The translations under genes and the position numbers were made by a program. 51,493 nucleotides of DNA from a virus (taxonomy: Duplodnaviria > Caudoviricetes), in the IMG/VR virus record IMGVR_UViG_3300045955_000245, positions 1 to 51,493 of that record. One strand, given 5' to 3'. Of this stretch, positions 7,321-44,252 are shown in pieces. Below the pieces are notes generated by a model. That model was not told the origin of the DNA and ran no database searches. It saw only the letters and a program-made list of their open reading frames with translations. Within the stretch, counting starts at the first letter, position 1; every line of letters starts with the position of its first letter.

Positions 7321-7513
7321 CTGCTACGACCGCGCTGGCGTGCGGCGCTGCCGGGTGACGCTCACCGACGGCAGTCTCGAGGGCAGCGTGGTGTGGTATC
7401 GTCCACCCCTGGCCGGCGGGCCGGACGTGCGCCGCGTCGACCGCAGCGAGGCCGCCTGCCTGCTCTGGCGCTGGCGCCACGAGGGCGGGTCGGTGGTCGA
7501 GCTCGCGCGCTAG
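7286..7513 (+). CDS. Hypothetical protein
   Basis: Last ORF of the operon, converging on the AAA gene. Confidence 0.45.
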   Translation: MGTTKPARRRFDCYDRAGVRRCRVTLTDGSLEGSVVWYRPPLAGGPDVRRVDRSEAACLLWRWRHEGGSVVELAR

Positions 7514-8700
7514 GCCGCCCTCGCCCGAGCCCGCTCGGCCCGCTTCCGGCACGCATCGCATAGGCCATTGGCGTGGACCGGGCGGCCGCAGTCGGGCGTT
7601 TGGCACAGCGCACTCACCGTGGCAGCGCGCTCTGCCACCGGAGCGGCAACCGGCACGACGGGCACGAACGCCACGCACGTCGGCGCACCCGGCGGCCCGA
7701 TGAACTGCGCCGCCACCGACCAGGGTTCGGCCGCTAGCCCGAAGTTGGACTTAGCGTGCGTCACCTGGACGTAGCCGCCCTGGCGCTCGAGCGTGAGCTG
7801 GCTGCGGATTTTGGCGTGCTTCATGAAGCTGCCCACGGCGCCCTGTTCGGTGTGCTTGCCCGTGTGGTCGATGGCGACGACCGGCACGCCCCAACTCTCG
7901 AAGCCGCCCAGTACCCGGTTCCACCCGTTATGGTCGGAGAGCGCCACGCCACGTGCGCCGATCGTCAGCGAGTCGACCAGCACGCAGCCGGCGCGGTGCT
8001 TCCTGACGGCCCGACCAACCAGCGCGATGCCCTCGGGATCGCCGAGCGAGCACTCCACTTGCAGGTAGCGCAAGCCGCGCGGCGGACGTGAGAGGCCGCG
8101 TCCACGAGCCAGCGGCCAGGCACGCCGGCGACACTCCTCGCCCTCCAGCTCGGCGTCGACGTACAGCACGGACGATAGGCGGCGCACCGGGCGGCCCAAC
8201 CAGTCGCCGCCAGTGAGACAGGCGATGCCCAGGTCGAGTAGCATCAGCGACTTGCCCAGTCCACCGGGCGCCACCAGCGCCGTGACGTACCCGCGCGGTT
8301 CCAGCCGGAGCCACAGGCGGCGCGCCGGCGTCGGGCCGTAGGGCACCAGTCCATCGACCAGCCAGGCCCGCGGCGGCGGCTCGCTGCCGATAGACACGTC
8401 CAGCGTCGTCCCACCGTCCCCGGTGCGTCCCCGCGGTGCTGGCCGCCGCCCGCTCGTGGCAGTGGGCAGCACCCCCGGCGTCCCAGGCGTCCCACCGTGG
8501 GCGTCCCCCCTACGGGGGGACGAGCCGGCAGGATGGGACGGGTTGGGACGGCCGTGGGACGCCTGCTCTGCCCCGCCAACGGGTGAGCGGGATGGCGGAC
8601 GAGTGGGCGGGAGACGCATGAACCACCAGTGCCACGCCAGCATCGCCAGCGCGAGCACGCCGAGCCAGAGCGCGGCGTCGGGCGGCCTATCCGCCGGCAT
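7510..8700 (-). CDS. Membrane-anchored RecA/RepA-like (AAA_25) ATPase with C-terminal Zn finger
   Basis: N-term TM LWLGVLALAMLAWHWWF; WLVDGLVP; Walker A APGGLGKS; VLYVDAE; Walker B VLVDS; IDHTGK; CQTPDC...GLCDAC. Confidence 0.75.
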   Translation of the reverse strand: MPADRPPDAALWLGVLALAMLAWHWWFMRLPPTRPPSRSPVGGAEQASHGRPNPSHPAGSSPRRGDAHGGTPGTPGVLPTATSGRRPAPRGRTGDGGTTLDVSIGSEPPPRAWLVDGLVPYGPTPARRLWLRLEPRGYVTALVAPGGLGKSLMLLDLGIACLTGGDWLGRPVRRLSSVLYVDAELEGEECRRRAWPLARGRGLSRPPRGLRYLQVECSLGDPEGIALVGRAVRKHRAGCVLVDSLTIGARGVALSDHNGWNRVLGGFESWGVPVVAIDHTGKHTEQGAVGSFMKHAKIRSQLTLERQGGYVQVTHAKSNFGLAAEPWSVAAQFIGPPGAPTCVAFVPVVPVAAPVAERAATVSALCQTPDCGRPVHANGLCDACRKRAERARARAA

Positions 8701-8854
8701 CGCCGCGCTTCCGCGCCCTGAGGGCTTCCCGGACGAGTTGCACGACCTGGTAATTCACCGTCCGCGTCTCGCACGCCGCCAGCCGCTTGACCTCCTCCCA
8801 CACGTCCGGCGGCAGGTAGATCATGATGCGGTGCGGCGGCGGGCGCGTGGACAC
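8687..8854 (-). CDS. Arc-like ribbon-helix-helix regulator
   Basis: RIMIYLPPDVWEEVKRLAACETRTVNYQVVQLVREAL; GGAGGA RBS. Confidence 0.75.
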   Translation of the reverse strand: MSTRPPPHRIMIYLPPDVWEEVKRLAACETRTVNYQVVQLVREALRARKRGDAGG

Positions 8855-8875
8855 GGGCGCTCCTCCGTCCAAGCG

Positions 8876-8905
8876 TTGATGCTGCATGCTAGCATATGCT
8901 ATCGT
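8876..8905. promoter_or_regulatory. Probable promoter/operator of the T4SS-like operon
   Basis: TTGATG-N18-TATCGT with overlapping palindromes ATGCTAGCAT (8886-8895) and AGCATATGCT (8891-8900), between divergent genes. Confidence 0.5.
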
Positions 8906-8916
8906 GGCGGCGGGCG

Positions 8917-10056
8917 ATGGACGGCCTATCGGACGCGCTCAACGACGCGCTGGCGCAGTTCGGGCACGATCTGCTGCTCCAACTCAACGACGCGCTGCAA
9001 TCGGCGTTCTCGACGTGGATGAGCAACTCGGCACCGTCCCTGTTCGGGCGCCTGCTGACGATGGCGATCGGCGCCCTGGCCCAGTGGCTCTGGCAGGCGG
9101 CCGGCGGCGCCCTGGGCGGGTTCAACCTGTTTACCCAACTGCCGCCGATGTGGAGCTACGAGCTCAGGCCGGCCGTCGAGTTGCGCGACCGGCTCGGCCC
9201 GCTCGCCAAGGGGTTGGTCGGGCTGGCGTTCCTGGCCGGCATCGGCTGGGGCGCCGTCTGCCTGGCGACCGGCCGCACGTTCTCGCGCGTGGTCGGGGCA
9301 CTCCCGACGTTCCTGCTGGCGACGGGCGGGTTGCTGGCGGCCCCCACGCTGTGCAAGTGGTGGATCGACTTCGCCAACGCGGCCAGCGCGTCCCTGATGA
9401 ACCCGTCTAGCGGGTTGCCGGGGTTGGAGCAGGTGCGCGGCTGGGAGTACGAGTCGGCGCTTGGCGTGGTCGCCCTGGTCTACCTCGTGGTCGCCGTGCT
9501 GATGCTCCTGACGCGGCTCAAGCTGGTGGTGATCGTCTGCCTGCTGCTGGTGGTGGCGCCCATCGCCCTGGCATCGGCGGCGCTGCCCGTCCCGCTGGCC
9601 CAACGCTTCTTTTCGTGGTGGCTGGCGACGTTCGCGGGCGCCGTGTTCGTGCAGGTCTTGCAGGCGGTCTGCTTCGGGTTAGGCGCGGCGCTGCTGGCGG
9701 CGCCGTTCGTCACCGGCGGCGTGGAAGGGCCAGCCGAAGCCGTCTTGAGCGCCAGTATCGGCATCGGCTCGTTGCTGGCGGCGATGGCGCTGCCGGGGAT
9801 GCTGCTCGGTTCGCTGGCCCGCGCCGGATTGGCACCGGGCGTGTTGGGTAGCGCGTTGCAGGCGGGGACGCTGCTCGCCGGCTTTGGCCTGCCGCTGGCG
9901 GCCAGCATGGGCGCGGCGGGTGCCGCCGCGAGTGCCGGACGCGCCGCCGTGTGGCCCGTGGCGCCTCCGGCGCTACCCGCACCGAGCACGATGAGCTTGG
10001 CCCCAGTGGGCGGCTACGTGCGCAGCGTGTTGTTGTTGCCCGCACCGAAGGACTGA
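8917..10056 (+). CDS. VirB6/TrbL-like polytopic membrane protein
   Basis: Many TM segments; NLFTQLPP..SY, WWIDFANA and LLVVAPIAL...WWLATF...FVQVLQ patterns; Gly/Ala-rich tail; first gene of the operon with VirB4. Confidence 0.7.
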   Translation: MDGLSDALNDALAQFGHDLLLQLNDALQSAFSTWMSNSAPSLFGRLLTMAIGALAQWLWQAAGGALGGFNLFTQLPPMWSYELRPAVELRDRLGPLAKGLVGLAFLAGIGWGAVCLATGRTFSRVVGALPTFLLATGGLLAAPTLCKWWIDFANAASASLMNPSSGLPGLEQVRGWEYESALGVVALVYLVVAVLMLLTRLKLVVIVCLLLVVAPIALASAALPVPLAQRFFSWWLATFAGAVFVQVLQAVCFGLGAALLAAPFVTGGVEGPAEAVLSASIGIGSLLAAMALPGMLLGSLARAGLAPGVLGSALQAGTLLAGFGLPLAASMGAAGAAASAGRAAVWPVAPPALPAPSTMSLAPVGGYVRSVLLLPAPKD

Positions 10057-10074
10057 AAGGGAGGAACCGAGATA

Positions 10075-10308
10075 ATGACTCCTGAGGCAATCATCGCCAA
10101 CCTGACCGCGCTGGTCCAAGCCGTGATGGTGCCGCTCGGCGGCCTCTGCGGCGTCGCCGGCACCGTCCTGTTTGCCAGCGGCAAGGCGACCGACAGCCCC
10201 AACATCATCCGCTGGGGCAAGAACTCGTGGCTCGCTGCCATCATCGCCTTCGGCGGCGCCGCCGTCGTCTCGCTAGCCCAGTACCTCAGTGGCCGCATCT
10301 TCGCCTAA
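10075..10308 (+). CDS. VirB2/TrbC-like pilin
   Basis: 77 aa, two hydrophobic helices separated by a short basic loop (GKATDSPNIIRWGK); strong RBS. Confidence 0.65.
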   Translation: MTPEAIIANLTALVQAVMVPLGGLCGVAGTVLFASGKATDSPNIIRWGKNSWLAAIIAFGGAAVVSLAQYLSGRIFA

Positions 10309-10318
10309 CCAGGCGGTA

Positions 10319-10657
10319 GTGCCGGATGGCGCGATCGACGAGGCGCGGTTGTGGCACGCCTGCCCGCGACTGGACGCGCCCGCGCGGCTCTTGTTGGGCT
10401 TACCAAGTCACCAGGCGAAATGGTTGCTCGGCGGCGTGCTGCCGGCGCTCGTCTTGGTGGGCGCGTGGTCGGACGCCTGGGGCTCGCCGGCGTGGTGGGC
10501 GTTCCTGCTCGGCGGCCTGCTGGTGGGCATCGTGGGCGCGTTCGTGCGTCCCCACGGCCGGCACCTGGGCCACTGGGCGTCCGCGCTCGTGACGTATTAC
10601 ACCAGCCCGAGGCGGGCGGTGTGGAAGCCGGTAGGGAGGAGGACGCTCGTATGGTGA
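10319..10657 (+). CDS. PrgI/VirB3-like membrane protein
   Basis: P.LD...LLLGL...Q; two TMs; RPHGRHLGHW...YYTSPRRAVW signature. Confidence 0.75.
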   Translation: MPDGAIDEARLWHACPRLDAPARLLLGLPSHQAKWLLGGVLPALVLVGAWSDAWGSPAWWAFLLGGLLVGIVGAFVRPHGRHLGHWASALVTYYTSPRRAVWKPVGRRTLVW

Positions 10658-10968
10658 CGGACGCGCTCAACGTGGCCGAGATTGAGAGACGCGCGGCGTC
10701 TCTCGTCCAATCGCCCCGCTTGCATACGCATGGACTAGCAACACAGCGCGTGTTAGAGGTCGACGTACCCGCCCTGGTTGCCGAGGTGCGCCGCCTGCGG
10801 GGCGAGTTGGACGACTGCGCCCGCGACTACCGGGAGGCGTACACCAGACACATCCGCGCCATCGACCTCCTGATTGAGGTCCAGGACTGGCCGCACCTGA
10901 CCCCGCTCGACCCCGGCCTGTGCGACCGGATCGACACGTTCCTGGACGCGGACACAGACGGGCGATGA
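10651..10968 (+). CDS. Phage-type hypothetical protein
   Basis: DVPALVAEVRRLR motif; GGAGGAGG RBS. Confidence 0.6.
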   Translation: MVTDALNVAEIERRAASLVQSPRLHTHGLATQRVLEVDVPALVAEVRRLRGELDDCARDYREAYTRHIRAIDLLIEVQDWPHLTPLDPGLCDRIDTFLDADTDGR

Positions 10969-11639
10969 GCCTGCTTGCTCGGTGCTTCGCCATCGGCCGC
11001 CTCGCCCGCGCACCCAAGGCGCAGACGGCAGGCAGGATGCTGCCGCCCGCCAGCGTCCAGCGCAGCCAGTTGGGGTTGTCCATGGTGGACGTGCTCAACG
11101 GCGTCGTCACCGTCCGCGGCGGCGAGGTGCGCTGTCTCGTATCCCTGTCGGGGTTCCCGCTGCACCGCGCCGGCCCGCGCGAGGCGGCGGCGTTCCTCGC
11201 CGGGTTCGCCCGTGCGCTCAACGCGCTGCCGGCGGGCGCCGCGTGGATCGTCCGTTCACGGCCCGGTGGGTTGTACGGCCACATCACCAAGCAAGAGCAA
11301 TGGGGACCGGGCAGTACGGCGCTCGCCCGGTTGCGGCACGCGCAGTTGGCGCACGCCCGCTCACAGGAACTCACGGGTGCCGTCAGGGAGACGACCAACT
11401 ACGTCGTCTTTCGGCACCCCAAGGGCGACGTGCGGGCGTTGCTGACCGACGCCGCCGCCGCCATCGGGCAGTTGCGGGCGGCCGGCCTGCGCGCCGAATT
11501 GGTGACGGAGAAACGGTTGGCGGAGGCGCTGGCCGTGAGTTGGCACCCGGCGGCGCAGGAGCACCTGTGGGTGTCGGTGGGCGAGACGACGCTGAACTAC
11601 TCACCGTCGGCGGGCGCACGGGTGAGGTTTGCGGAATGA
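10965..11639 (+). CDS. VirB4-associated protein (resembles a split VirB4/TraC N-terminal region)
   Basis: SVQ...NGVVTVRGGEVRCLVSLSG...FARALNAL...IVRSR...NYVV...QLRAAGLRA. Confidence 0.55.
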   Translation: MSLLARCFAIGRLARAPKAQTAGRMLPPASVQRSQLGLSMVDVLNGVVTVRGGEVRCLVSLSGFPLHRAGPREAAAFLAGFARALNALPAGAAWIVRSRPGGLYGHITKQEQWGPGSTALARLRHAQLAHARSQELTGAVRETTNYVVFRHPKGDVRALLTDAAAAIGQLRAAGLRAELVTEKRLAEALAVSWHPAAQEHLWVSVGETTLNYSPSAGARVRFAE

Positions 11640-12118
11640 GCACTTGGCACTATCTGCGGTACTTGTGCCGGCACAAGTGGTGGGTATTCGTCTACGCCTG
11701 CAAGATGGGCGTGCCGTGGCGCGGCGTGACGCACGACCTGTCCAAGTTCCGGCCGAGCGAGTTCTTCCCCTACCGAGACTACTTCTACGGCGGCTATCCC
11801 AGAGACGCCAAGCCGCCCGAGGTACAGGCGGCGTTCGACCGGGCGTGGCTGTACCACCAGCACCGCAACAATCACCACTGGCAGCATTGGGTACTCAGGG
11901 AGGACGACGGCGGCACCAAGATGCTGCCGATGCCCGATGCGTGTCGGCGCGAACTACTGGCCGATTGGATGGGTGCCGGACGCGCCATCACCGGCAAGAG
12001 TGGCGGCACAGCCGATTGGTACCGCAAGAACCGGGAGCGGCAGCACATCAACGCCGAGACGCGGGCATGGATTGATGGCGTGTTGCTGTCTGCGCCGCCA
12101 CAGGAATCAATGTCGTGA
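11636..12118 (+). CDS. DUF5662-like HD-type protein
   Basis: RHKWWV...HDLSKF..SEF...AWLYHQHRNNHHWQHW...ELLADW.GAG. Confidence 0.7.
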   Translation: MSTWHYLRYLCRHKWWVFVYACKMGVPWRGVTHDLSKFRPSEFFPYRDYFYGGYPRDAKPPEVQAAFDRAWLYHQHRNNHHWQHWVLREDDGGTKMLPMPDACRRELLADWMGAGRAITGKSGGTADWYRKNRERQHINAETRAWIDGVLLSAPPQESMS

Positions 12119-14034
12119 GTGCCCTCGCGCTGCGGCGCCCGACGCTGCCACGGTTGCCACACGTGACCCTCGAGCCGGTGCGCCGCCGGATCGCCACGCT
12201 GAGAGAGACGTTACGCGCCGCCGCCCTCGTGGAGTCGGGCGAACGCACGTTGCTCGACGCCCTGGCGCCCGACTGGACAGAGCAGACGAAAGACACGTAC
12301 ACCGTGGCGGCGGACGGGCACGAGCACCACTGCCGGACACTCCTGATTCGGGACTGGCCGCCCAGGGTCAACGCCGGCTGGCTGGCGCCCCTGCTCTTTG
12401 ACTTGGCCGGCGACGTGTCCATCGGACTGCACACCGAACGGCTGGCGAAGGGCGCCGCCGCCAAGCGAGCGCGCAACGCGCGGGTGGTGCAGACGACGGA
12501 CGCGCTCGCGCGGGCGGAGGCCGGCAAGCTGTCAGACCCAGCAACGCAACTGAACGTCGCCAGCGCCGAGCAGATCGCGCTCGACGTGGAGGCCGGCGCC
12601 GAAGCCCTGTACTCGTGTACCGTGGCGCTCACCCTCCGGGCGCCCACGGCAGGCGAGTTGGACACGCTCACCAGGCGGGTGCAGGAGCACCTGGGCGCGT
12701 CGGGCGTGCGCGTGTCGCCAGCCCTGTGGGAGCAACGCGGCGGCTTCCTGTCCACCGTGAGTTACGCCGGCCCAACCCTGGAGCGGCCGCGCACGGTAGA
12801 CACGTCGACGCTGGCGCTGTCGTGGCCGTTTCTGGGGCAGGACTTGGGCACGCGGGATGGCCCGCTCATCGGCATCGCCCTGGCCGACCGGGCGCCCGTG
12901 CACCTCGACCTGTGGGCGCGCGAGGAGGGCTGGAACGCGCCCGGTTTGTGCATCGTGTCGCCGCCGGGCGGCGGCAAGACGGTGACGATCGGCACCCTGG
13001 CGGCGCGGCACCTGACCCAACCGGACGCGCCCGACGTGCTACTCGTCGATCCCATGAAGGGCGATTACCGCCGCCTCGTCAGAGAACTCGGCGGGCAGAT
13101 TGTCAGGCTGTCGACGTCACCCGACGTGGTGTGCAACCCGCTGGATTTGCCGCCGGCGACCATCCTGTCGGGGACGGGCGAGACCAGCGAGCAGAATCCG
13201 GTGACGGAACAGACGCGGTTGGTCACCGGCTTGCTGGCGCTGATGGTGACGGACCCGGGCCCGGACGGCGCACCAGGAAGGATGACGCGAGCCGAACGAG
13301 CCGTCGCCGAGGGCGCCGTGCTCGCCGCCTATGCCGGTGCCGGCATCCTGCCCAACGACGCCGGGACGTGGGACGCGACGCCGGCCGACGTGCCGGCGCT
13401 CCCCGACGTGTTGGCGGCGCTGGAACGGCAGGCGGCCGATCACGGCTCCACGACGGCCAGAAGTGTGGCCGAACGACTGGCGCCCTTTTGCCGCGGGACG
13501 CTGGCGGCGCTCTTCAGCCGGCCGACCACGCTCAGGCTCGACGCCGGGTTGACCAGCTTCGACCTGGAAGGCTTGGACAGCGAGCTCAGGCCGCTGGCCG
13601 TGTGGCTGATCGGGGATTACGTGTGGAAGGTGGCGAAACGTGACCGACGCCGCCGTATCCTCAGCATGGATGAGGTCAAGACGCTGCTCGAGTACCCGGA
13701 GAGCGCCCGACTGGTGGCACACCTGTACACCCTGGGCCGCGCCTACCACCTCTCGGTGTGGAGTGCGACCCAACTGCTCAGCGACTACGGCTCGACGCCG
13801 GAGGGCGAACGGGCGTTGCAGTCGGCCGATACGGTTCTTTTACTCCGTCAAGCGCCTGGCCGCGGCTCAGGAGACGCACAGGCGCGGTACGGGCTGACGG
13901 CGGGCGACCGGGCGTGGCTCGAGGCGTGTGGGCAGGGCGCCGGCGTGCTGCGCACCCCGAAGGGCACTGGGCGCGTGCAGGTCACGCCATCGCCCCTTGA
14001 GTTGGCGCTGATGGGCGGGCCGGAGGCGGCATGA
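12115..14034 (+). CDS. VirB4-like ATPase
   Basis: Walker A SPPGGGKT; VDPMKGDY; CNPLD; SFDL; Walker B MDEV; GRAY...ATQ; LLLRQ. Confidence 0.85.
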   Translation: MSALALRRPTLPRLPHVTLEPVRRRIATLRETLRAAALVESGERTLLDALAPDWTEQTKDTYTVAADGHEHHCRTLLIRDWPPRVNAGWLAPLLFDLAGDVSIGLHTERLAKGAAAKRARNARVVQTTDALARAEAGKLSDPATQLNVASAEQIALDVEAGAEALYSCTVALTLRAPTAGELDTLTRRVQEHLGASGVRVSPALWEQRGGFLSTVSYAGPTLERPRTVDTSTLALSWPFLGQDLGTRDGPLIGIALADRAPVHLDLWAREEGWNAPGLCIVSPPGGGKTVTIGTLAARHLTQPDAPDVLLVDPMKGDYRRLVRELGGQIVRLSTSPDVVCNPLDLPPATILSGTGETSEQNPVTEQTRLVTGLLALMVTDPGPDGAPGRMTRAERAVAEGAVLAAYAGAGILPNDAGTWDATPADVPALPDVLAALERQAADHGSTTARSVAERLAPFCRGTLAALFSRPTTLRLDAGLTSFDLEGLDSELRPLAVWLIGDYVWKVAKRDRRRRILSMDEVKTLLEYPESARLVAHLYTLGRAYHLSVWSATQLLSDYGSTPEGERALQSADTVLLLRQAPGRGSGDAQARYGLTAGDRAWLEACGQGAGVLRTPKGTGRVQVTPSPLELALMGGPEAA

Positions 14035-14351
14035 ACCAGGTGCGGGCGCAACTGCTGATCCACGGCGGGCGCGTCGTCGCCCGCGACTGGACGCTCGAAC
14101 GCAACGCCACGGGCGGCTGCCGCCTCACGCTCAACACCGCGCCGCTCACGGCACGCACCTACGGCTCGATTATGTGCTCGCTGATCCTCGGCCGGGCAGA
14201 GTTCCCAATCGTGTTCGACGCGACGATACACGGACGCGGCGTGCACTACGACGGCACGGCGTGGGTGGAGGAGATGACGACGGATTCCGGCCCGCCGGAG
14301 ACGCAGAGGCTCGTGTTCTGCTGGCAGCTGCCGATCGGTGAGCCGCGGTGA
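14031..14351 (+). CDS. Hypothetical protein
   Basis: ATGA overlap with the VirB4-like gene, GGAGG RBS. Confidence 0.55.
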   Translation: MNQVRAQLLIHGGRVVARDWTLERNATGGCRLTLNTAPLTARTYGSIMCSLILGRAEFPIVFDATIHGRGVHYDGTAWVEEMTTDSGPPETQRLVFCWQLPIGEPR

Positions 14352-14441
14352 GTGCAGCCAACCGGACGGTGCCAGCGCCGCCGCCCGGTCAATCCTGGAG
14401 TGGGCGTACCGCCGCCATGCTCGATGAGATGGCGGCCCCTA

Positions 14442-14579
14442 TCACGACGCCAGCATCGTCGCCGCCAGCCAAGCTCCTAGCCCCAAGGCCACCAGATTGA
14501 CCCGCGACGGCACGCCCACGGCGGCCAGGATGAAGCACACCAGCGCCAGGATTTGCAGGATGCGCGGCAGCACCAGCAT
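14442..14579 (-). CDS. Small two-TM protein, holin candidate (45 aa)
   Basis: MLVLPRILQILALVCFILAAVGVPSRVNLVALGLGAWLAATMLAS; GAGGAGGAG RBS; downstream of the endolysin. Confidence 0.55.
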   Translation of the reverse strand: MLVLPRILQILALVCFILAAVGVPSRVNLVALGLGAWLAATMLAS

Positions 14580-14594
14580 CGTCGTTCTCCTCCT

Positions 14595-14801
14595 CTAGGC
14601 CGGCGCCGCCACCCGCCGCGCCGCCACCCGCCGGTAGGTGAGCCCCGCCACGCGCGTGCGACGGCACCGCGCACAGAACACGTCATGCCGCCCGACGCGG
14701 CTGCCGAGGTCGCCCGGTCCGGCAATCGTCCACGACGCGCCGCACGTCTCGCAGCGGTAAACCCGCTCCACGGCGGTAACACCGCGCGACGGGGCGGCCA
14801 T
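14595..14801 (-). CDS. Small Zn-ribbon protein
   Basis: YRCETCG...FCARC. Confidence 0.5.
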   Translation of the reverse strand: MAAPSRGVTAVERVYRCETCGASWTIAGPGDLGSRVGRHDVFCARCRRTRVAGLTYRRVAARRVAAPA

Positions 14802-14803
14802 CG

Positions 14804-15637
14804 TCAGCCGGTCCAACTCGGCGGCGTGTTGGGTGCGTACACGCACACCCCTCCCTCAAAGACCATCCAGGCACGTCCCGAGCCATCGGGCGCCGCCTGC
14901 TCCGCCGCCTTCGGCAGCCCGCGGTACCTTCCAGAGCGGTACTCGGCAAGGAACGCCTTGTACAGCGCGGCGTCGGGGTTGAGCGGCACGCCGGCGGCCG
15001 CCCACAGCGGGGCAAAGACCCACTCGGTCAACTCCTGGTCGGTCACGATTGGTTCTCCTGGTATCGGGATAGGGATAGGGTGTGGTGCGACGCCGAGAAA
15101 CTCCAGGATGGCCGCGCAATCCGCCGCCGCGACCGTCTCTATCTGGTCGAACAGCACATCGTGATCATCGCCCTGCCCGATGCCGTGCTCGACGATGATT
15201 CCCGGTGTCTGGTCGGTCGTGGCGCGGAAGGCGTAGTAGTCCCACGTGTTCGGGTTGCGCCGCTGGTTGGCGACCGGGATACCGGTCGCCTCGACGTAGT
15301 GGCGCTCCCAGATGGCGATGGCCCGGTCGCTGGCGGCGCCCATCGGGTCGTTGCGGGCACGGTCGGCAAAGCAGCCAGTGTTGTTGCCCGGCCCGTAGAT
15401 AGCGGCGTCGTAGTGCAGCGCGACGAACAACTCCCAATCCTGCGAGCATTGGGGCGGCGGCTTGCGGACCACGCCGTTGCACAGCCACGCACCCACCACG
15501 TCGGCGGCCACACCCGCTGCCACCAACCGGCGGCGCAGGCGTCCCGACAGGTCGAGCGCCCAGTCTGCCTCGCCCGGTGCGCCGCCGCCCCCGCCGCCGG
15601 GGCAGTTGTGCCCCGCCTGAATCAGCACACGCGCCAT
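14804..15637 (-). CDS. Endolysin, N-acetylmuramoyl-L-alanine amidase (Amidase_3)
   Basis: LIQAGH...GE; FVALHYDA; IIVEHG Zn/catalytic motifs; Pro-rich linker and C-terminal binding domain. Confidence 0.85.
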   Translation of the reverse strand: MARVLIQAGHNCPGGGGGGAPGEADWALDLSGRLRRRLVAAGVAADVVGAWLCNGVVRKPPPQCSQDWELFVALHYDAAIYGPGNNTGCFADRARNDPMGAASDRAIAIWERHYVEATGIPVANQRRNPNTWDYYAFRATTDQTPGIIVEHGIGQGDDHDVLFDQIETVAAADCAAILEFLGVAPHPIPIPIPGEPIVTDQELTEWVFAPLWAAAGVPLNPDAALYKAFLAEYRSGRYRGLPKAAEQAAPDGSGRAWMVFEGGVCVYAPNTPPSWTG

Positions 15638-15738
15638 GTGGCAATCCCTATCTGGCAACAGGTAGAATAAGGGAAACGAACACGCCCCCGCGACGCTGGA
15701 ACGTCCGGGGGCACGGCACCAGCAAGGGGGTCTTGCCG

Positions 15739-16362
15739 ATGCAGCCTCAGCGTAACAAGCGGCATGCGCCGCTGCCGCCCACGCAGCGAGTTTGTGAGCA
15801 TTGTGGGCAACTGTTCATCGTCTACCACGCGGACCTTCGGCGTGGCCACAGCCGCTTTTGCGGCAACGCCTGCCATATCGCCCACCGCTACGGTTCGATT
15901 GAGCAACGCTTCTGGAAGAAGGTGGACCAGACTTCCAACCCCGATGGCTGTTGGCTCTGGACTGGGTGGCACGACGCGGCCGGCTATGGGGAAATGTCCA
16001 TTCCTGGAACCGGACGCAACACGAAAGCCCATCGTGTCGCCTACCTGTTGACGAAGGGGCCAATCCCGGACGGCCTGCTTGTGTTGCACCGCTGCGACAA
16101 TCCGCCCTGCGTGCGGCCTGGCCATCTCTTTCTTGGCACCCAGGGAGACAATGCGCGGGATAGGGAAGCAAAAGGCCGCGGGCGGCAACCGCGAGGTGAG
16201 CGGACTGGTCGAGCCAAATTGGACGCCACTCGCGTCTCCGCTATTCGTGCTCGCTATGCGTCGGGCACTGCGTCTCAACCACAACTGGCCCGCGAGTACG
16301 GAGTATCCACCAGCTTGATTAGTCTCATTGTTCGTCGGGAGGCGTGGCGGCACATTTCCTGA
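15739..16362 (+). CDS. HNH homing-type endonuclease with Zn finger and C-terminal HTH
   Basis: RFWKKV...CWLWTG...GYG...AHRVAY...VLHRCDNPPCVRPGHLFLGTQGDN...AKL...LAREYGVS. Confidence 0.9.
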   Translation: MQPQRNKRHAPLPPTQRVCEHCGQLFIVYHADLRRGHSRFCGNACHIAHRYGSIEQRFWKKVDQTSNPDGCWLWTGWHDAAGYGEMSIPGTGRNTKAHRVAYLLTKGPIPDGLLVLHRCDNPPCVRPGHLFLGTQGDNARDREAKGRGRQPRGERTGRAKLDATRVSAIRARYASGTASQPQLAREYGVSTSLISLIVRREAWRHIS

Positions 16363-16411
16363 CCGCATTACCGCTGCCCCTTTACCGCCAACCGTTCGAC
16401 GTAGGCGGGGG

Positions 16412-16852
16412 TCATTCTGCGGCCGCCTCCCGCTCGACCCGCTCGACCCGCTCGGTGCGTGCCCGCTCTGCCGCGTACCGCCGCAGCCGCGCGTCGAACC
16501 GGCCATCCTGCCAGATGTGCGCGTCCACCAGGACGGCCAGCAACGCCAGCAGCGCCAACTGCACCACGCCGATGGCGCTGCCCCGTAGTGCGGGCCAGGC
16601 GTAGCCGAGCAGCGCCACCCCAGCGACGATGCCCTTGAGCGCCACAACGCCGAGGTGCATCCGCACCCGCCACAGATTGGCCCAGGCGGCGTAGGTCAGC
16701 GCGCCGTCCGCGCCGCTGGCCCGCAGCCGCCACAGATCGCGCACCGCCCGGCCGTGTAGCCGCGCCGCCAAGAGCAGCCCGTACAACGAGCCGCCGAACC
16801 ACACAATCGTCGTGCCGAGTGCCAGCGCCCGAGTCACGTCCTCGATATCCAC
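16412..16852 (-). CDS. Membrane protein (lysis region)
   Basis: Three hydrophobic segments. Confidence 0.6.
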   Translation of the reverse strand: MDIEDVTRALALGTTIVWFGGSLYGLLLAARLHGRAVRDLWRLRASGADGALTYAAWANLWRVRMHLGVVALKGIVAGVALLGYAWPALRGSAIGVVQLALLALLAVLVDAHIWQDGRFDARLRRYAAERARTERVERVEREAAAE

Positions 16853-16890
16853 TCCATCACTCCCACTCCATCACTCCCACTCCATCACTC
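16849..16890. repeat. 3 x 14-bp tandem repeat CCACTCCATCACTC
   Basis: Exact copies at 16849, 16863 and 16877. Confidence 0.95.
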
Positions 16891-17100
16891 CCGCCGCAGG
16901 TCCACGTCCTGCCGCAGCCGTTCGAGCGTCTCGCGCGTCTCGCGCGCCTGCCGCTCGATAATTTCCTGCCGCCGGATAATCGATTGCTGCAACTCGTCGG
17001 GAATGTGCCCCCGCGCGGCACGGCCGCCGGTGCCAGCGTCGCCGCTCGGGCCGATACCGAGCGCCCGCACGACCCATGCCCACCAGCCGCCTATAGCCAC
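16885..17100 (-). CDS. Hypothetical coiled-coil protein
   Basis: Charged helical C-terminus; operon position. Confidence 0.5.
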   Translation of the reverse strand: MAIGGWWAWVVRALGIGPSGDAGTGGRAARGHIPDELQQSIIRRQEIIERQARETRETLERLRQDVDLRRE

Positions 17101-17137
17101 CCTGGTTGCCTTTTCGTCTTTCGCCGCGCTGCTGTGC

Positions 17138-17389
17138 TTACGGCGCTAGCCGGTCATTGTGCGCCATCTGCTGGCTCACGCGGATGGCATCGCGCGTCAA
17201 ATCCTGCTGCCGTTCCGCGAGTGCCGTGCCCTGCAAGGCCAACCCGCGCCAGAAGTCGCGGTCGCGCTCGACCGCCGCCACGTACCAGCCATACGCCCAC
17301 CACTTGCGGGCGCCCGTCAGCACGACGACGAGCAGCATCGTCACCGGCACGCCGAACCGCTCGACGAGGGGAATCCAGTCGTCAAACAC
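17138..17389 (-). CDS. Holin-like single-TM protein
   Basis: FGVPVTMLLVVVLTG TM then a coiled coil; start of the lysis region. Confidence 0.5.
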   Translation of the reverse strand: MFDDWIPLVERFGVPVTMLLVVVLTGARKWWAYGWYVAAVERDRDFWRGLALQGTALAERQQDLTRDAIRVSQQMAHNDRLAP

Positions 17390-17457
17390 GGCGCGTGTCC
17401 GTTCCCGCGGCGAGCGTCGTGCCCAGGAAGGTGCCGGCCAGCGTGGCGGTGTTCACG

Positions 17458-18669
17458 TCAGGTGCCCACCGTCGCCACCCACGAGCGGCCGCCGCCGCCC
17501 CTGAGCTCGAGCACCAGTTGGCTCACGCGCAGCGCCGACCCGCTGACGTACTGGTAGCCGTAGGTCTCCTGGTTGGGCACCGTGCCGTGCGCCACGGCGC
17601 TGCGGGCGTAGAAGTAGGTCGTCAGCGGTTGCGCGGACGCGATGGTCGAGAACGACGTGCCGAACAGCACCCGCAGCAGCGCCAACCCACCGAGCGCCGC
17701 CTCGCCCCGCACGAGCGCGCAGAGTTGCCCGTTGTAGCTCAGGATCGAGCCGAGTTGGTCGGCCGGCAGCGGCGGCGCGCCGAAGGTGTACACGTCCTGC
17801 GCGTCGGTGCCGCCGTCGGCCCGGACGTAGGCCGCGTCGTTGTCGGCGATGGTCTCGCCGACCGCCTCCAGATTGGTGGCGGCGCCCACCGGCGTCCAGA
17901 CGACGAAGCCGCCGCCGGGTGTGGCCGGACCGCTGGTGGGCAGGTAGGCCCGCACCGGCCGGTAGCCGGTGAGCTGCGATTCGAACGTCCCGCCGCTGCT
18001 CGTACTCGGCCCCAACAGGTGCGTGTACAGGTCGCACACGTCCACCCGCACCGCGTTGCCGCCGTCCTGGTTGCCGAACCGGACGCGGGTCAGCTGGGGG
18101 TTGGCCATCACCCCGACGTCGACCGGCGTGATGCCGTCCGCGTCGAGCACCGCGTCGCCGTCCACCCGCACCAGCGCCCGGCCGGTCCCCGGCGTGCCGG
18201 CGCCGTCGCCCAGGCGCAGCGCGATCTCCAGAAACACCCAGGTATCGAAGGGCAGCGCGCCGGTCCCGGTGGCCACCACGGTCGTCGGGTCGCTGACGGC
18301 GAACGTGCCGTCGCTGCGTAACCGAATCTGGGTCAACTCGGTGCGCGTGCCCAGCGCCGGCGTGGCGTCGTAGATGCCCTGCACCAGCGCGATCGACGTG
18401 GTGGCGCCCCACGTCCCGGAGTGGACGTACACCGAGCCGCCCCACGCCAGGTAGGTGCGGGCCGCCCCCGACCGGTGGAAGGCGTGCTCGACGCTGGTCG
18501 CGCCGCCGTCGAACCGCAGCGCGCTGCCGGCGGTGCGGCCGTCCACCAGTTGGGGCGTGCCCTGCACCACGGCGTACTTCTGGCCCACGTCGGCCGCCGC
18601 GTAGTGGCTGCACGAGTCCACGAACCAGTCGAGCTGTTGCAGCACCAGCGGGTAATCGGAGGAGGGCAC
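17458..18669 (-). CDS. Tail fibre/receptor-binding candidate
   Basis: Beta-rich lectin-like segment (TWVFLEIAL...VRVDG); last tail gene. Confidence 0.5.
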   Translation of the reverse strand: MPSSDYPLVLQQLDWFVDSCSHYAAADVGQKYAVVQGTPQLVDGRTAGSALRFDGGATSVEHAFHRSGAARTYLAWGGSVYVHSGTWGATTSIALVQGIYDATPALGTRTELTQIRLRSDGTFAVSDPTTVVATGTGALPFDTWVFLEIALRLGDGAGTPGTGRALVRVDGDAVLDADGITPVDVGVMANPQLTRVRFGNQDGGNAVRVDVCDLYTHLLGPSTSSGGTFESQLTGYRPVRAYLPTSGPATPGGGFVVWTPVGAATNLEAVGETIADNDAAYVRADGGTDAQDVYTFGAPPLPADQLGSILSYNGQLCALVRGEAALGGLALLRVLFGTSFSTIASAQPLTTYFYARSAVAHGTVPNQETYGYQYVSGSALRVSQLVLELRGGGGRSWVATVGT

Positions 18670-27687: not shown

Positions 27688-28374
27688 TCAGGCGAACACC
27701 AGTGGGCGCGGCAGCAGCGCGATCACGTCGTCGGGGATGCCCAGCAGCCCACGCTCGGCCGTGCTGGCAATACTGCTCGCCGTCGGGCTGCCGTAGGAAA
27801 TGCGCACGTCGCCCACCTGGTAGCTGGTGGCGGCGCCGCCACTGGCGGAGAGCGCACCGATGCCCGTAAGGGAGCCGCGCATCCAGTAGGCCACCAGCTT
27901 GGTGGCCGCCAACTCGATGCGCGGCGGCACGCTCACCGCCGGCGTGTAGCTCACCAGCGCCAGCCAGCCGCCGTAGCCGTTGGCCACGTTGAGCAGCCCC
28001 TGCTCCGCGTCAAGCAGCTCGTACTGCGTGCCCGCCGTCAGCGCTTGCAGCGTCGAGCCGATGGCGCTGGTTCTCACGGAGACGGATTGGATGGACGCTA
28101 CCGGCCTGGTGCGGAGTTGGAGCGTGGCCGGCGGGTACCACGACAGGTCGTACACCACGTCGACGGGCGAGGAGCCCTCAGTCCACGGCGCCGCCCGCAC
28201 CACGTAACTCTCGGCCGCCACTGCCGAGACGGTGCCCCAGACGCGGCCGGTTTTGTCGTCGATCCACTGCTCGGCCACCGGAATCAGCAGCGAGCACTCG
28301 GCCCGCTGCGCGTCCGTGAACGTCAGCGGGTTCAGCGAGTGCTCGACCCGATCGACCGTGGTGTAGCCAGGCAT
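27688..28374 (-). CDS. Head-tail adaptor
   Basis: YTTVDRV...AEQWIDDKTGR...VSYT...VPP.IELAA...VGDVRISY. Confidence 0.7.
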   Translation of the reverse strand: MPGYTTVDRVEHSLNPLTFTDAQRAECSLLIPVAEQWIDDKTGRVWGTVSAVAAESYVVRAAPWTEGSSPVDVVYDLSWYPPATLQLRTRPVASIQSVSVRTSAIGSTLQALTAGTQYELLDAEQGLLNVANGYGGWLALVSYTPAVSVPPRIELAATKLVAYWMRGSLTGIGALSASGGAATSYQVGDVRISYGSPTASSIASTAERGLLGIPDDVIALLPRPLVFA

Positions 28375-29894
28375 CAGGCGGCCACTCCTACCGGCTCCGG
28401 CTCGGTGGGTTCGGCCGCCGGTTGCGCGGCGGCGGCACAGCGGCCGAGCACCCGCCGGTAGAGCGCCGCGTGGCGCTCGGCCACCAGCCGCCACGAGTGG
28501 AACTCTTCGACCCAGGCGCGGCCGTTGTGCCCGTAGTCGGCGCGCATCTGGGGGTACGTCGCCAGCAGCACCATCTGCCGGTAGAGCTCGTCGGCGGTGC
28601 GCGCCTGCACGATGGGCGGCAACTCGCCCAACCCACCCGAGTCTAGGCACCAGCGGTGCACCTGGGGATCGAGATGGGTGATCACCGGCCTCCCGCAACT
28701 CAGGGCTTCGACGGTGGTAGTGCCGAAGCTACCGACGCTCCAATCGAACTGGTCGAGGATCACGTCGGCCGCGTGGTACAGGCGACGCATCCGGGGCTTG
28801 CTCGAGCAGGCCGCCCACAGGAAGCGACCGCCGTGCTTGAAGCCTAACCGCTCCATCAGGTCGGCCGTGTCCCGCGTTTCAAGCCCCCAGTACGACAGGA
28901 TCAGCACCGCCTTGGGCGCGCCCTGCGGTTCCGCTTCGTCGACGTAGCGCCGGAACGCGTGCAGCACCCGATCGTTGCGCTTGCCGCCCGCGACACCGGG
29001 AGCGGCCTGCCGGGCCGGTTGCCAGAAGATGACCTCCGCATCGCGGGTGGCGTCGCCGCCAGGCTCAAGCATCTGGCGGCGGAGTTGCTGCGCCGCCGCC
29101 ACGTCGCCGGCCGAGACGCACGGCGCAAAGCGGTCGGTATCCACCGGGTGCGGGATGAACAGCCGCCGGTCGGCGCCGCCCTCGTGCAACCCGAGCGCCC
29201 AGGCGGCCTCGGCACAGTCGGCGTTGGTCAGCACGTTGGCGTCGGCGTGCCGGTAGGCCAGCGCGATCAGCCGATGCTCGGGCGTGTTCTTGCTCGGCGC
29301 GTGGCGCATCGTGGAGTGCTCGAAGGTGACATAGGGCACGTCGGGCGGGAACAGCACGCCATACGCGGCCATCGGGCCGAGCAGCACAGTCAGGTCGTAG
29401 TTGGCCGCCAACGTGAGGATCGAGCGGACGGCCGGGTAGTCCTGGAGGTCGGCAACCGCCTGCTCCTGCTCGCCGGCATCGAGCCGCGAACGGGCGAGGA
29501 GCGTGCGGACGTGGGCGTCGCGTACCTGGCGGTGCTCGCCCGGCAGGGTGATGAACCGCGCCGCGCCGTAGAACCGCGCCAGGTCGGCCTGGAATGCCTC
29601 CTGCGTGTCGTACCACGGCTCGGCGCCGTCCGCGCCCAGGATTTTGGCCCACGGCGGCCGCGCCACCTCCCACTGCCGGGCGGGCGTCAGCCAATCGTAG
29701 TGGTCGGGGTAGATACCGCCGGTCTCGACGTCGAAGTCGGCCAGCTCCCAGTAGGGCACCCACATGGCGGTACCGCCGCCCAGGTCGAACGAGTCGGCCT
29801 CGATGCCTTGCCCGGCTGGCCGGTCCAGGCGGCGCAGCGCTTGCGCCAGCAGGAAGGCGTTTTGGGCGACGTTGCCGATGAGCGCCACGCGCAT
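28374..29894 (-). CDS. Glycosyltransferase (GT-B, GT4-like)
   Basis: GNVAQNA; IPHPVDT.RF; LYHAADVILDQF..GSFGTTTVEALSCGRPVI; WVEEFHSW. Confidence 0.85.
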   Translation of the reverse strand: MRVALIGNVAQNAFLLAQALRRLDRPAGQGIEADSFDLGGGTAMWVPYWELADFDVETGGIYPDHYDWLTPARQWEVARPPWAKILGADGAEPWYDTQEAFQADLARFYGAARFITLPGEHRQVRDAHVRTLLARSRLDAGEQEQAVADLQDYPAVRSILTLAANYDLTVLLGPMAAYGVLFPPDVPYVTFEHSTMRHAPSKNTPEHRLIALAYRHADANVLTNADCAEAAWALGLHEGGADRRLFIPHPVDTDRFAPCVSAGDVAAAQQLRRQMLEPGGDATRDAEVIFWQPARQAAPGVAGGKRNDRVLHAFRRYVDEAEPQGAPKAVLILSYWGLETRDTADLMERLGFKHGGRFLWAACSSKPRMRRLYHAADVILDQFDWSVGSFGTTTVEALSCGRPVITHLDPQVHRWCLDSGGLGELPPIVQARTADELYRQMVLLATYPQMRADYGHNGRAWVEEFHSWRLVAERHAALYRRVLGRCAAAAQPAAEPTEPEPVGVAA

Positions 29895-30859: not shown

Positions 30860-30861
30860 CG

Positions 30862-39365: not shown

Positions 39366-39367
39366 GG

Positions 39368-39598: not shown

Positions 39599-39604
39599 CG
39601 TTCG

Positions 39605-41293: not shown

Positions 41294-41304
41294 GCGTCAG
41301 CGCC

Positions 41305-42039: not shown

Positions 42040-42065
42040 CTCAACGCTCCCTGGTCCCTGGTGCG

Positions 42066-42859: not shown

Positions 42860-42872
42860 GGCCTACAGCTCC

Positions 42873-44250: not shown

Positions 44251-44252
44251 GA

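Follow-up and report, generated by a model that had tools for sequence, protein, structure and literature searches.

Reduced type IV secretion systems (T4SSs) without a relaxase have been described in archaea and bacteria. The archaeal Ced system, which is built from CedA, CedA1/A2, and CedB together with CedD, is reported to import DNA without a relaxase or VirD4 (PMC11868833; PMC9905601), and the Ted loci are described as linked to a helicase (PMC9905601). The T4SSs of Patescibacteria, as portrayed in PMC12102498, have an ancestry in the mating-pair formation class FATA (MPF-FATA), are mostly relaxase-less, and rarely have a coupling protein near virB4. The DNA analyzed here, hereafter the window, is a viral sequence of 51,493 bases from soil (IMG/VR record IMGVR_UViG_3300045955_000245, positions 1 to 51,493, the whole virus of that record). 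It is the genome of a complete-looking temperate tailed phage (Caudoviricetes) that carries on its plus strand an operon of eight translationally coupled genes (8896, or ATG 8917, to 14351), five of which are T4SS homologs. New here is the carrier, a tailed phage, in which a T4SS core is found together with a new accessory ATPase. It is highly probable that the operon encodes a functional, T4SS-derived membrane machine of the phage.

The gene order TrbL_4/VirB6, PF18895 pilin, PrgI/VirB3, TrsD-like protein, and short VirB4 is the same in the T4SSs of Chloroflexota integrative and conjugative elements (ICEs) and of an Actinomycetota plasmid (Embleya). The ICE and plasmid systems add an NlpC/P60 protein, a DnaG-type primase, a coupling protein of 800 to 958 amino acids, and Replic_Relax, none of which was found in the window or in the second phage that carries the module. 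Unlike the ICEs and plasmids, these phages possess a membrane-anchored AAA_25 ATPase, their VirB4 is only about 30% identical, and the carrier is a tailed phage. In its gene content the module also resembles the T4SS of Patescibacteria, for which a TrsD-like protein, VirB4, VirB3/PrgI, VirB6, and PF18895/VirB2-like pilins are described; that system is chromosomal, near-universal in its phylum, and reported to be essential for epibiotic growth (PMC12102498), whereas the phage module is accessory and belongs to another phylum. With Ced and Ted it shares a VirB6-like channel, two-helix VirB2-like pilins, the lack of a relaxase and of VirD4, and a split-off N-terminal domain of VirB4, represented by CedB with CedD in Ced and by VirB4 with the TrsD-like protein in the phage (PMC9905601; PMC11868833). 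Ced is archaeal and chromosomal, and its import of DNA after UV damage is reported as demonstrated (PMC9905601; PMC11868833). The phage ATPase does not belong to the CedB family (NF041017, E 0.066, 11.8 bits against a cut-off of 700), and the resemblance to Ced and Ted is one of gene composition, a functional analogy only.

Prophage Phi1207.3 and the phage-ICE tandems are described as moving by a contact-dependent or ICE-driven route besides or instead of virions (PMC4260502; PMC5154133; PMC13651849). In the tandems, the prophage lies beside a complete ICE, uses its machinery, and is stated not to be a hybrid (PMC13651849); for Phi1207.3, the excerpts of PMC4260502 and PMC5154133 hold no statement of an encoded T4SS. 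Unlike the tandems, the window phage has its T4SS core within a single phage genome that encodes one integrase; a pair of adjoining elements with an integrase apiece and a complete ICE module were not found in it. The module sits between the replication/lysogeny genes and the lysis genes of the phage, likewise in the second phage. The literature searched yielded no description of a tailed phage with a gene for VirB4 or VirB6; the per-phage supplement of Pfeifer et al. 2021, who screened 2383 phages with CONJscan (PMC7969092), may list cases. The INPHARED phage collection yields 17 weak VirB4 matches, all of them in fragments labeled "UNVERIFIED Bacteriophage sp." The only one of the 17 examined, MT835575.1 (L170), was ruled out as a phage: it is a Firmicutes-type conjugative element with a relaxase, a VirD4 coupling protein, VirB4, TrbL_2, NlpC/P60, a topoisomerase, and RepA_N, and none of its ten large open reading frames (ORFs) holds a phage hallmark.

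Composition of the T4SS operon

The eight genes are delimited by frame analysis of the G+C content at third codon positions (GC3) and by start/stop overlaps. The first encodes a VirB6/TrbL-like polytopic membrane protein of 386 aa (8896-10056, alternative start 8917) with at least five hydrophobic segments. It matches Pfam TrbL_4 at E 2e-4 (21.2 bits, cut-off 27) and is homologous to an ICE protein of the genome G237 (tblastn E 5e-4; 4e-6 for the protein of the second phage) that itself passes TrbL_4 with E 3.4e-15 and 56.6 bits. The second is a VirB2-like pilin of 77 aa that takes on a two-helix hairpin (10075-10308; PF18895 T4SS_pilin, E 8.8e-5, 22.9 bits, cut-off 26.6). Among its five aligned homologs three match PF18895 (best E 6.4e-12) and one matches TrbC/VirB2, and the gene is kept in every locus that covers its position. 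The third encodes a VirB3/PrgI-like membrane protein of 122 aa (10289-10657) that by itself reaches only E 0.04 to PrgI; six of its nine aligned homologs match PrgI (PF12666, best E 4.1e-9), and the alignment has the motif G-x2-L-x2-W...Y-x3-P-[KR]-x2-V-W in common. Pairwise BLAST of the VirB3-like protein and the pilin against named plasmid proteins gave no informative match.

The VirB4-like ATPase (12115-14034, 639 aa) matches NCBIfam conju_CD1110 at E 8.5e-48 (163 bits, cut-off 325) over profile positions 180-726 of 752 and VirB4_CagE at E 6.8e-19, likewise below the curated cut-off. A profile of 21 VirB4 homologs finds the VirB4 C-terminal domain 4AG5 as its sole relative in the Protein Data Bank (PDB; E 1.5e-28), and tblastn recovers VirB4/TrsE/CD1110 genes on 407 plasmid records with 21-30% identity, down to E 4e-37. 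The Walker motifs, which had been read as intact from the letters alone, are invariant (GxxGxGK and DE; G285/G287/K288, E520) across the 21 full-length homologs. The fifth T4SS gene, which encodes a TrsD-like protein of 224 aa (10965-11639), is treated below.

The remaining three genes are small. Between VirB3 and TrsD lies the gene for a soluble acidic protein of 105 aa (10651-10968) that is coupled by ATGGTGA and ATGA overlaps, has a GC3 of 0.83, lacks a PHROG match, and is missing from this junction in the second phage and in the locus L003. By eye, this protein and an 82-aa protein of the second phage both contain "...R.RGEL.DC...". Between TrsD and VirB4, a phage-type DUF5662 protein of 160 aa is encoded (11636-12118; PF18907 E 4.3e-38, phrog_20637 E 2.4e-21), which is absent in L003. 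The last coupled gene (14031-14351; ATGA overlap with the VirB4 stop, GC3 0.90) encodes a small soluble protein of 106 aa without a Pfam, PHROG, or NCBIfam match and with Atlas search scores below 0.9. In PHROGs, no family was found for VirB6, the pilin, VirB3, TrsD, or the 105-aa and 106-aa proteins.

The sequence-only reading had placed here a co-oriented operon of a polytopic membrane protein, a two-helix protein, a PrgI-like protein, a VirB4-associated protein, and an ATPase, and had compared it with the VirB6-VirB2-VirB3-VirB4 core of Gram-positive-type mating-pair systems. All five gene types are present on the plus strand, and the profile matches that it had asked for exist: from Pfam/NCBIfam, the homolog sets, and structure, the VirB4 ATPase, the VirB6/TrbL channel, VirB3/PrgI, and the VirB2-like pilin belong to a T4SS module of the monoderm, MPF-FATA-like type. 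Its location of the operon stands, and its end at 14034 does not, as the coupled 106-aa gene extends the operon to 14351; its list of five T4SS genes likewise holds and had missed two internal genes (10651-10968 and 11636-12118).

Inside the operon no gene for a cell-wall hydrolase was found, and tblastn found no homolog of the ICE NlpC/P60 protein. Hydrolase candidates of the phage are the amidase-like protein (14804-15658) and the protein with an SLT transglycosylase domain (43279-44277), either of which may serve lysis or infection. A VirB8-like protein was not recognized: the small operon proteins lack the expected single N-terminal membrane helix in a hydrophobicity scan, and among these proteins the fold search covered the TrsD-like one only.

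A stand-alone homolog of the VirB4 N-terminal domain

The gene that had been called VirB4-associated is real and corresponds to 10965-11639. The ORF opens at 10920, and the best homologs begin at its residue 16, which sets the start at 10965. An exhaustive, profile-free search (E <= 1e-3) returned 38 representatives, 37 of which are stand-alone proteins of 120-295 aa; the remaining one, P0070 (672 aa), is a weak match in eight stretches. The AlphaFold model, built with 28 homologs, has a mean predicted local distance difference test score (pLDDT) of 84.6 and a predicted template modeling score (pTM) of 0.75. Among the listed Foldseek ranks, 11 of the 12 best matches (ranks 1-10 and 12; rank 11 lies outside the listing) are chains of TrwK/VirB4 from R388, with E of about 1e-3 to 1e-2. 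VIA-align superposes the model on VirB4 residues 8-397 with Z 8.1-10.7 and 117-166 aligned residues; the margin is modest, as the next unrelated chain reaches Z 8.0. By sequence, the TrsD-like protein has no match in the PDB. TrsD proteins are described as remote homologs of the VirB4 N terminus in PMC12102498.

A stand-alone N-domain explains why the phage VirB4 lacks the first ~180 positions of its profile. The same split of TrsD and VirB4 is found on a Pontibacillus plasmid, where a 274-aa protein lies upstream of a CD1110 VirB4 (BLASTP 2e-6), and on the Embleya plasmid PrgI and the TrsD part form a single fused protein (BLASTP 1e-4). The Embleya plasmid also has an "XF1762 family" gene at the junction of PrgI-TrsD and VirB4 (L072 7366-7863), where the window has DUF5662; the two show no similarity, and a relationship between them is ruled out.

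Conservation in a second phage and selection

The sequence-only reading had proposed looking for the operon in other complete phage genomes, and one further phage contig does carry it. This second phage, G001, is a linear IMG/VR contig of 56,865 bases (CheckV completeness 56%) with the operon at the same place. Gene order is common to both phages: on one side of the operon the AAA_25 gene points away from it, and on the other side the late and lysis genes are convergent with it. At the amino acid level the identities are 39% for the integrase and 32% for AAA_25 in the left arm; 47% for VirB6, 43% for the pilin, 47% for VirB3, 44% for TrsD, and 56% for VirB4; and 40% for the amidase, 53% for the portal, 48% for the protease, and 39-44% for the major capsid protein (MCP). 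Further window genes reach 61% (30320-31069), 48% (28374-29894), and 37% (27688-28698). At the TrsD/VirB4 junction (L162 3372-4147), G001 has two other small genes (82 aa and ~110-176 aa) in place of DUF5662, and L003 has no inserted gene. Since the inserts vary across the window, G001, and L003, the conserved part of the operon is the five T4SS genes, and small genes of phage type can be inserted at the junctions. In IMG/VR scans with the window VirB4, the VirB4 alignment, P0018, and P0031, G001 was the only further phage instance; one metagenome scan added seven short contigs.

Ratios of nonsynonymous to synonymous substitution (dN/dS) were calculated with the method of Nei and Gojobori (NG86) and, being saturated and biased by a GC3 of about 0.9, are read only relative to phage core genes. 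They amount to 0.25-0.28 for VirB4, 0.35-0.58 for TrsD, 0.49-0.52 for VirB3, 0.64 for VirB6, and 0.77-0.88 for the pilin, compared to 0.57 for MCP, 0.62 for the amidase, and 0.43 for the 28374-29894 gene in the same genome pair (a misaligned portal row was dropped). Overall, the T4SS genes are no less constrained than the capsid gene, with higher ratios in VirB6 and the pilin. In this comparison relaxed selection, which the sequence-only reading had named as a sign of a decaying remnant, is not indicated, and the operon appears selectively maintained.

A decaying ICE remnant captured by recombination, or a passive cargo without function, would fit the missing coupling protein, relaxase, primase, and hydrolase, the unrelated small genes at the junctions, the capsid relatives without the module, and the four in-frame TGA codons in a related copy from a metagenome-assembled genome (MAG), G002. 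It is very improbable nevertheless, as the five genes are intact and coupled in the window, G001 retains intact versions of them at the same site with 43-56% identity, the catalytic motifs are invariant in no fewer than 21 full-length VirB4 proteins of the clade, and constraint equals or exceeds that on the capsid gene.

Related phages show that the module is accessory. The capsid family has 271 relatives in IMG/VR. Among the best 80 of these, all 24 records of at least 20 kb were checked for VirB4, which occurs in one (G001) and in none of the eight that are at least 90% complete. In G403 (32 kb, 99% complete), the genes for the large terminase subunit (TerL), portal, MCP, head-tail proteins, tape measure protein (TMP), and tail are 53-81% identical to those of the window, whereas the left arm is not shared at all. 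A virion can thus be built without the module. The genome in the window is mosaic, with a structural module of the G403 type and a left arm of the G001 type.

Integrity of the assembly

The join between operon and phage is not a misassembly. CheckV gives a completeness of 100%, and the ends of the record are identical over 127 bp (1-127 = 51367-51493). An overlap of 127 bases is presumably a common maximal k-mer of assemblers, and the repeat probably reflects a circular assembly path rather than a packaged, physical terminal redundancy. The G+C content is ~69% throughout the genome, without a break in composition at the T4SS operon. A 9.5-kb stretch was found in six soil-metagenome DNA runs from differing samples and studies, with word shares of 0.88-0.99. 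Two of these runs may be the source, and the borders were examined in two independent runs that are not. The left border is bridged by contigs 8158-9206 and 8141-9478 and the right border by contigs 10911-15480, 14411-17326, and 15455-18068, each with 0 differences, and the summed depth is flat (5-13) across 4-20 kb. Misassembly at the borders, which the sequence-only reading had wanted checked, is contradicted by these contigs, and direct repeats bracketing the module, of which it had seen none, were not found.

That the assembler fused a phage with a conjugative element, or that a phage-ICE tandem was excised in a single circle, is scarcely credible on these data. The 127-base repeat, which shows a circular assembly path only, and the mosaic relationship to G403 speak for it. 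They are set against the bridged borders and the even depth, the same join in G001, the six DNA runs that hold at least 0.88 of the sampled words (two of them possibly the source), the single integrase, and the failure to find a relaxase, a coupling protein, or bracketing repeats.

Origin from Chloroflexota ICEs

A word-indexed search in which 8000 candidates were scored returned 38 VirB4 relatives at E <= 1e-5, mostly metagenome proteins, two of which are labeled Chloroflexota. Among species-representative genomes, three contigs of one Chloroflexota MAG encode VirB4 proteins of 65-83% identity, and one further, more diverged and frameshifted copy is found in another MAG (G002). The G002 copy (G002:C30:202000-202839, L006/L036) has four in-frame TGA codons and changes of frame, and its sequence may reflect either decay or errors of long-read assembly. 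Of 401 evenly sampled Chloroflexota genomes, 72 hold a VirB4 relative at E <= 1e-20; this tally includes G346, which is flagged as unpublished and on which no other claim rests. One genome, G028, has three separate ICE-type VirB4 loci (contigs C17, C18, and C24; E ~1e-107 to 1e-110). Chloroflexota is probably the host phylum of the phage.

The ten best ICE contexts were taken at 25-40 kb each, with about 20 kb on either side of VirB4 where the contig allowed. All ten contain a VirB4 of ~30% identity, five an integrase homolog, and none a homolog of virion genes. In the two that were annotated (G237:C75 and G075:C114; nine proteins scanned), the order is PEGA, TrbL_4 (3.4e-15), NlpC/P60 (6.5e-28), pilin, PrgI-like, TrsD-like, and VirB4, followed by a DnaG-type primase, an ATPase of ~900-958 aa, Replic_Relax (3.1e-23), and an integrase. 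The ATPase has weak DUF87/TrwB_AAD_bind matches and is coupling-protein-like. The Embleya plasmid NZ_CP108778 is annotated with the same set.

When twelve ICE proteins were searched against the window and G001 with tblastn, only VirB4, TrsD, and VirB6 were recovered, and VirB3 weakly; the coupling protein, Replic_Relax, primase, NlpC/P60, and PEGA gave nothing better than E 0.03. No relaxase family was recognized among 30 ORFs scanned with Pfam and 30 with PHROGs, and tblastn with Replic_Relax returned noise, which leaves room for a very divergent or novel relaxase. These ORF scans likewise contain no VirD4/TcpA coupling protein, and the two coupling-protein-like ICE ATPases gave tblastn values of E >= 0.03, at the level of noise. 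Near the operon, the single further ATPase is of the RepA/RecA fold and not of the FtsK/VirD4 type. The phage thus presents neither a recognizable relaxase nor a recognizable coupling protein of a self-transmissible element, and the earlier statement that no relaxase, coupling protein, or second integrase is seen agrees with the scans.

A quick maximum likelihood tree of VirB4 (LG+G4, 58 rows), from which P0036 (partial), a duplicate window row, and L006/L036 (fragmented) were left out, unites 23 close sequences in one clade (Shimodaira-Hasegawa-like approximate likelihood ratio test, SH-aLRT, 100; stem 0.96) nested within Chloroflexota VirB4s. The main subclade of 21 rows is spanned by the window and G001. 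Sequence comparison thus indicates that the module descends from a Chloroflexota ICE-type T4SS.

The frequency of related ICEs bears on two other explanations. In the first, the module would be a conflict device, a partial mating channel that blocks or subverts the entry of ICEs or phages or jams a resident ICE machine. The phylum presumed to contain the host is indeed rich in related ICE T4SSs, of which one genome has as many as three, and the module is accessory and lies in mosaic genomes, as is often the case for defense and exclusion cargo of phages. We nonetheless regard this as quite unlikely: known exclusion systems are one or two small proteins and not five conserved machine parts with an intact ATPase among them, and the invariant Walker motifs of 21 homologs, together with VirB4 being the most constrained gene, point to an active machine.

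In the second, the phage would be a helper-dependent conjugative element that brings its own channel and takes a coupling protein and relaxase from a resident Chloroflexota ICE, or the reverse. Many ICEs of the same T4SS family, equipped with a coupling protein and Replic_Relax, occur in the phylum, and in phage-ICE tandems the ICE machinery is documented to co-transfer prophages (PMC13651849). At only ~30% identity between the phage and ICE VirB4 proteins, however, cross-recognition is doubtful. Mobilizable elements, moreover, normally bring an oriT or relaxase and borrow the channel, not the opposite, and helper dependence is less probable again than a conflict device.

The AAA_25 ATPase and the control region

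Next to the operon, on the minus strand, lies the gene for a membrane-anchored, RepA-like AAA_25 ATPase of 396 aa (7510-8700; Pfam AAA_25 E 2e-21). In this protein, a hydrophobic helix at the N terminus is followed by a linker rich in Pro and Gly, a core of the RecA fold, and a Cys4 motif at the C terminus. In its AlphaFold2 model (pLDDT 73.8), helix 9-28 scores ~90, the linker is disordered, and the core exceeds 90. The best Foldseek matches are Rad51, DnaB, and RadA, and RepA of RSF1010 (1NLF) is matched with a TMt (target-normalized template modeling score) of 0.67. Across the family, one to three strongly hydrophobic N-terminal segments and the RecA-fold core are followed by a variable C-terminal part, which is HNH in L003 and L005 (Pfam 4e-5 and 1.5e-5), Cys4 in the window, and, by eye, winged helix-turn-helix (HTH)-like in many of 14 database homologs.

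A homolog of this ATPase adjoins the operon in all five distinct loci of the clade with usable flanks (window, G001, L003 = L011, L004 = L012, and L005). It lies upstream and divergent in the two phages and directly downstream of VirB4 in the three MAG/soil loci. L013-L017, on which no AAA_25 homolog was seen, stand outside this count and carry no weight either way, as they reach at most ~1.5 kb beyond VirB4 and do not cover the upstream side. The homolog is absent from the ten ICE-type contexts and from four sister-clade contexts; in these four, tblastn recovers VirB4 alone. From its linkage and architecture, the AAA_25 protein is a candidate substitute for the motor or coupler in a T4SS without coupling protein and relaxase. 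When VirB4 was modeled as a complex with residues 95-396 of AAA_25, the core of that protein, the score was 0.00, which carries no weight either way. TraB of Streptomyces is a membrane-anchored, hexameric motor whose C-terminal domain binds DNA; it is of the FtsK type and works without a T4SS. The AAA_25 protein resembles TraB by architecture only, as its motor is of the RepA/RecA fold and stands beside a T4SS.

Between the AAA_25 gene and the operon, a small, putative DNA-binding protein is encoded on the minus strand (8687-8887) that looks like a ribbon-helix-helix (RHH) protein by eye. Its PDB matches to Arc (E 0.061) and Mnt (E 0.54) are not significant for this assignment, and NCBIfam gives no match. 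Its true start is probably the internal ATG at 8826, which would leave a divergent intergenic region of 70-90 bp. This region would be centered on a perfect 12-nt palindrome, TAGCATATGCTA (8890-8901), situated where the two divergent genes start. The palindrome occurs exactly once in the window; with up to two mismatches, there are two matches compared to 0.25 expected. It is a candidate operator or promoter core. A promoter scan returned 0 sites, and terminator-like sites did not exceed expectation in a useful place.

Proposed function of the module

In the proposed mechanism, the module is an ICE T4SS reduced to a translocon of the cytoplasmic membrane with a VirB6 channel, VirB3, VirB4, and a pilin, in which the TrsD-like N-domain protein would complete VirB4 in trans. 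Lying in the early/lysogeny arm, it would be transcribed from its own divergent control region. VirB3, VirB4 with TrsD, and VirB6 would assemble in the cytoplasmic membrane as in solved T4SSs, and the pilin would build a short conduit through which DNA, the presumed substrate, moves. The AAA_25 ATPase would engage the DNA and supply the motor or coupling function. Such an envelope conduit would move DNA between contacting host cells free of virions and without a classical relaxase or VirD4, and its direction may be import, as in archaeal Ced and in ComB, or export of the phage genome. That the operon forms a DNA conduit between touching cells in this manner is a serious possibility that we hold tentatively. 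The more specific proposal of a dual-mode element, which would spread by virions and by relaxase- and VirD4-free T4SS transfer between Chloroflexota cells with AAA_25 as a RepA-type hexameric helicase that carries a DNA-binding tail (HNH, winged HTH, or zinc motif), engages the DNA, and feeds it to VirB4/VirB6, is unlikely.

Several observations weigh against the conduit. Neither a relaxase nor VirD4/TcpA, a VirB8-like protein, or an operon-linked hydrolase was found in the searches described above, and canonical conjugation is not supported. The Pfam and NCBIfam T4SS matches of the window's own proteins all lie below the curated cut-offs, so that the assignments rest on the homolog sets and on synteny with ICE systems whose proteins pass. 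The phage contexts number two, and other members of the clade may sit on non-phage elements. The VirB6 and pilin ratios (0.64-0.88) equal or exceed the controls, in a dN/dS comparison whose saturation and GC3 bias make it a relative one. The linkage of AAA_25 was seen in five loci, all from a single clade, and common descent alone may account for it; the protein, which has PHROG primase/helicase matches, may be simply the replicative helicase of the phage; a separate replication-initiator gene exists elsewhere (48861-49835). The source gene call starts AAA_25 at residue 102 (P0077) and thereby omits the N-terminal helix, the codons 1-30 of which have a coding-like GC3 of 0.93. Lastly, contigs from RNA libraries match parts of 4.8-16.4 kb, including the operon, and nearly nothing in 16.8-20 kb; these contigs give neither transcription, timing, strand, nor level and are not counted as evidence of expression.

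Alternatively, the machine would move no DNA and would form a VirB2-type pilus or surface structure, or secrete protein, thereby altering adhesion of the lysogen, its filament or biofilm behavior, or cell-cell interaction. The gene set is the same as in the relaxase-less T4SSs of Patescibacteria, which are thought to be co-opted for other functions (PMC12102498). The retention of the pilin gene in all loci that cover its position and the location of the operon in the early/lysogeny arm would also suit such a role. The two phages, however, have no linked effector, adhesin, or sortase-type gene in common, the pilin is the least constrained gene (dN/dS 0.77-0.88), and the constant, DNA-binding AAA_25 neighbor is left unexplained. 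According to PMC9905601, monoderm bacteria are not known to have T4SS pili, an objection that holds if the host is a monoderm. We consider a pilus or secretion role somewhat unlikely and prefer the DNA conduit.

Other features of the phage genome

The description as a complete-looking tailed phage, already given from the letters, is upheld by the CheckV value, the virion genes, the integrase, and the S24 repressor: the genome contains a terminase, a portal, an HK97-type capsid protein with a protease, a tape measure protein, an integrase, and a repressor. The minus strand from ~49 kb down to 14.8 kb carries the virion genes. TerL (36094-37371, minus strand) matches Pfam Terminase_6N at E 5e-21, and the gene for the small terminase subunit (TerS) is identified by the Pfam scan as well; the portal, head protease, MCP, and TMP are assigned via PHROGs. 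The minus-strand block also contains the replication-initiator gene (48861-49835; phrog_9474 E 3.5e-41), two small membrane proteins that are holin-like by position, and the amidase-like gene (14804-15658), for which a Pfam amidase match is absent. Two genes for DNA methyltransferases lie on the minus strand (44943-46322 and 49854-51047), the first of which also matches the PHROG family "DNA binding protein" in its N-terminal part. The left arm encodes an HTH_17 protein, a CI-like repressor with HTH and Peptidase_S24 domains, and the tyrosine integrase. The scan for tRNA genes returned none, and no partition gene was found among the scanned ORFs. As an integrase is present, integration is a simpler reading than a phage-plasmid lifestyle.

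Some features are unusual for their position or quality. An HNH_3 endonuclease gene (15742-16362, plus strand) lies on the opposite strand amid the lysis genes and is covered by RNA-library contigs (16036-16385 and 15690-15890). A minus-strand block upstream of the terminase genes (38259-44277), an odd site for tail genes, encodes a repeat-rich, "tail fibre"-like protein (39605-41293), a Laminin_G_3 protein (41305-42039), and the protein with the SLT transglycosylase domain (43279-44277). The block has no conserved counterpart in G001, and compared to G403 only a 92-aa SLT piece matches. The "portal" ORF (34601-37057, minus strand, 818 aa) overlaps the TerL ORF in another frame, and the portal profile covers its residues 365-792 only. 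The true portal start is probably near 35.96 kb, and spurious long ORF extensions are frequent at the G+C content of this genome. The 506-aa head-module protein encoded at 28374-29894 (minus strand) has weak matches to glycosyltransferase families (E 2e-4 to 5e-3), is 48% identical in G001, and is unmatched in G403.

Implications for phages and conjugative elements

Self-driven gene transfer is regarded as following two separate routes, that of phages and that of conjugative elements, and the known overlaps are phage-plasmids, which lack a mating channel, and prophages that ride on a neighboring ICE. This division becomes less sharp with a tailed phage in which selection maintains a T4SS core of its own. 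The module is a bacterial, phage-borne addition to the relaxase-less minimal T4SSs represented by Ced/Ted, ComB, and Patescibacteria, and the AAA_25 ATPase offers a concrete candidate for the engagement of DNA in such a system. Classifiers that use VirB4 as a hallmark of plasmids and ICEs would misjudge phages of this kind, and the reverse error is seen in MT835575.1. If the dual-mode proposal were true, AAA_25 would represent a new class of T4SS substrate motor, and the phage would be the first among tailed phages to have a conjugation-like route of its own. Should the core transport DNA, the phage could pass from cell to cell without lysing them and without a receptor, for example along filaments or within aggregates of soil Chloroflexota.

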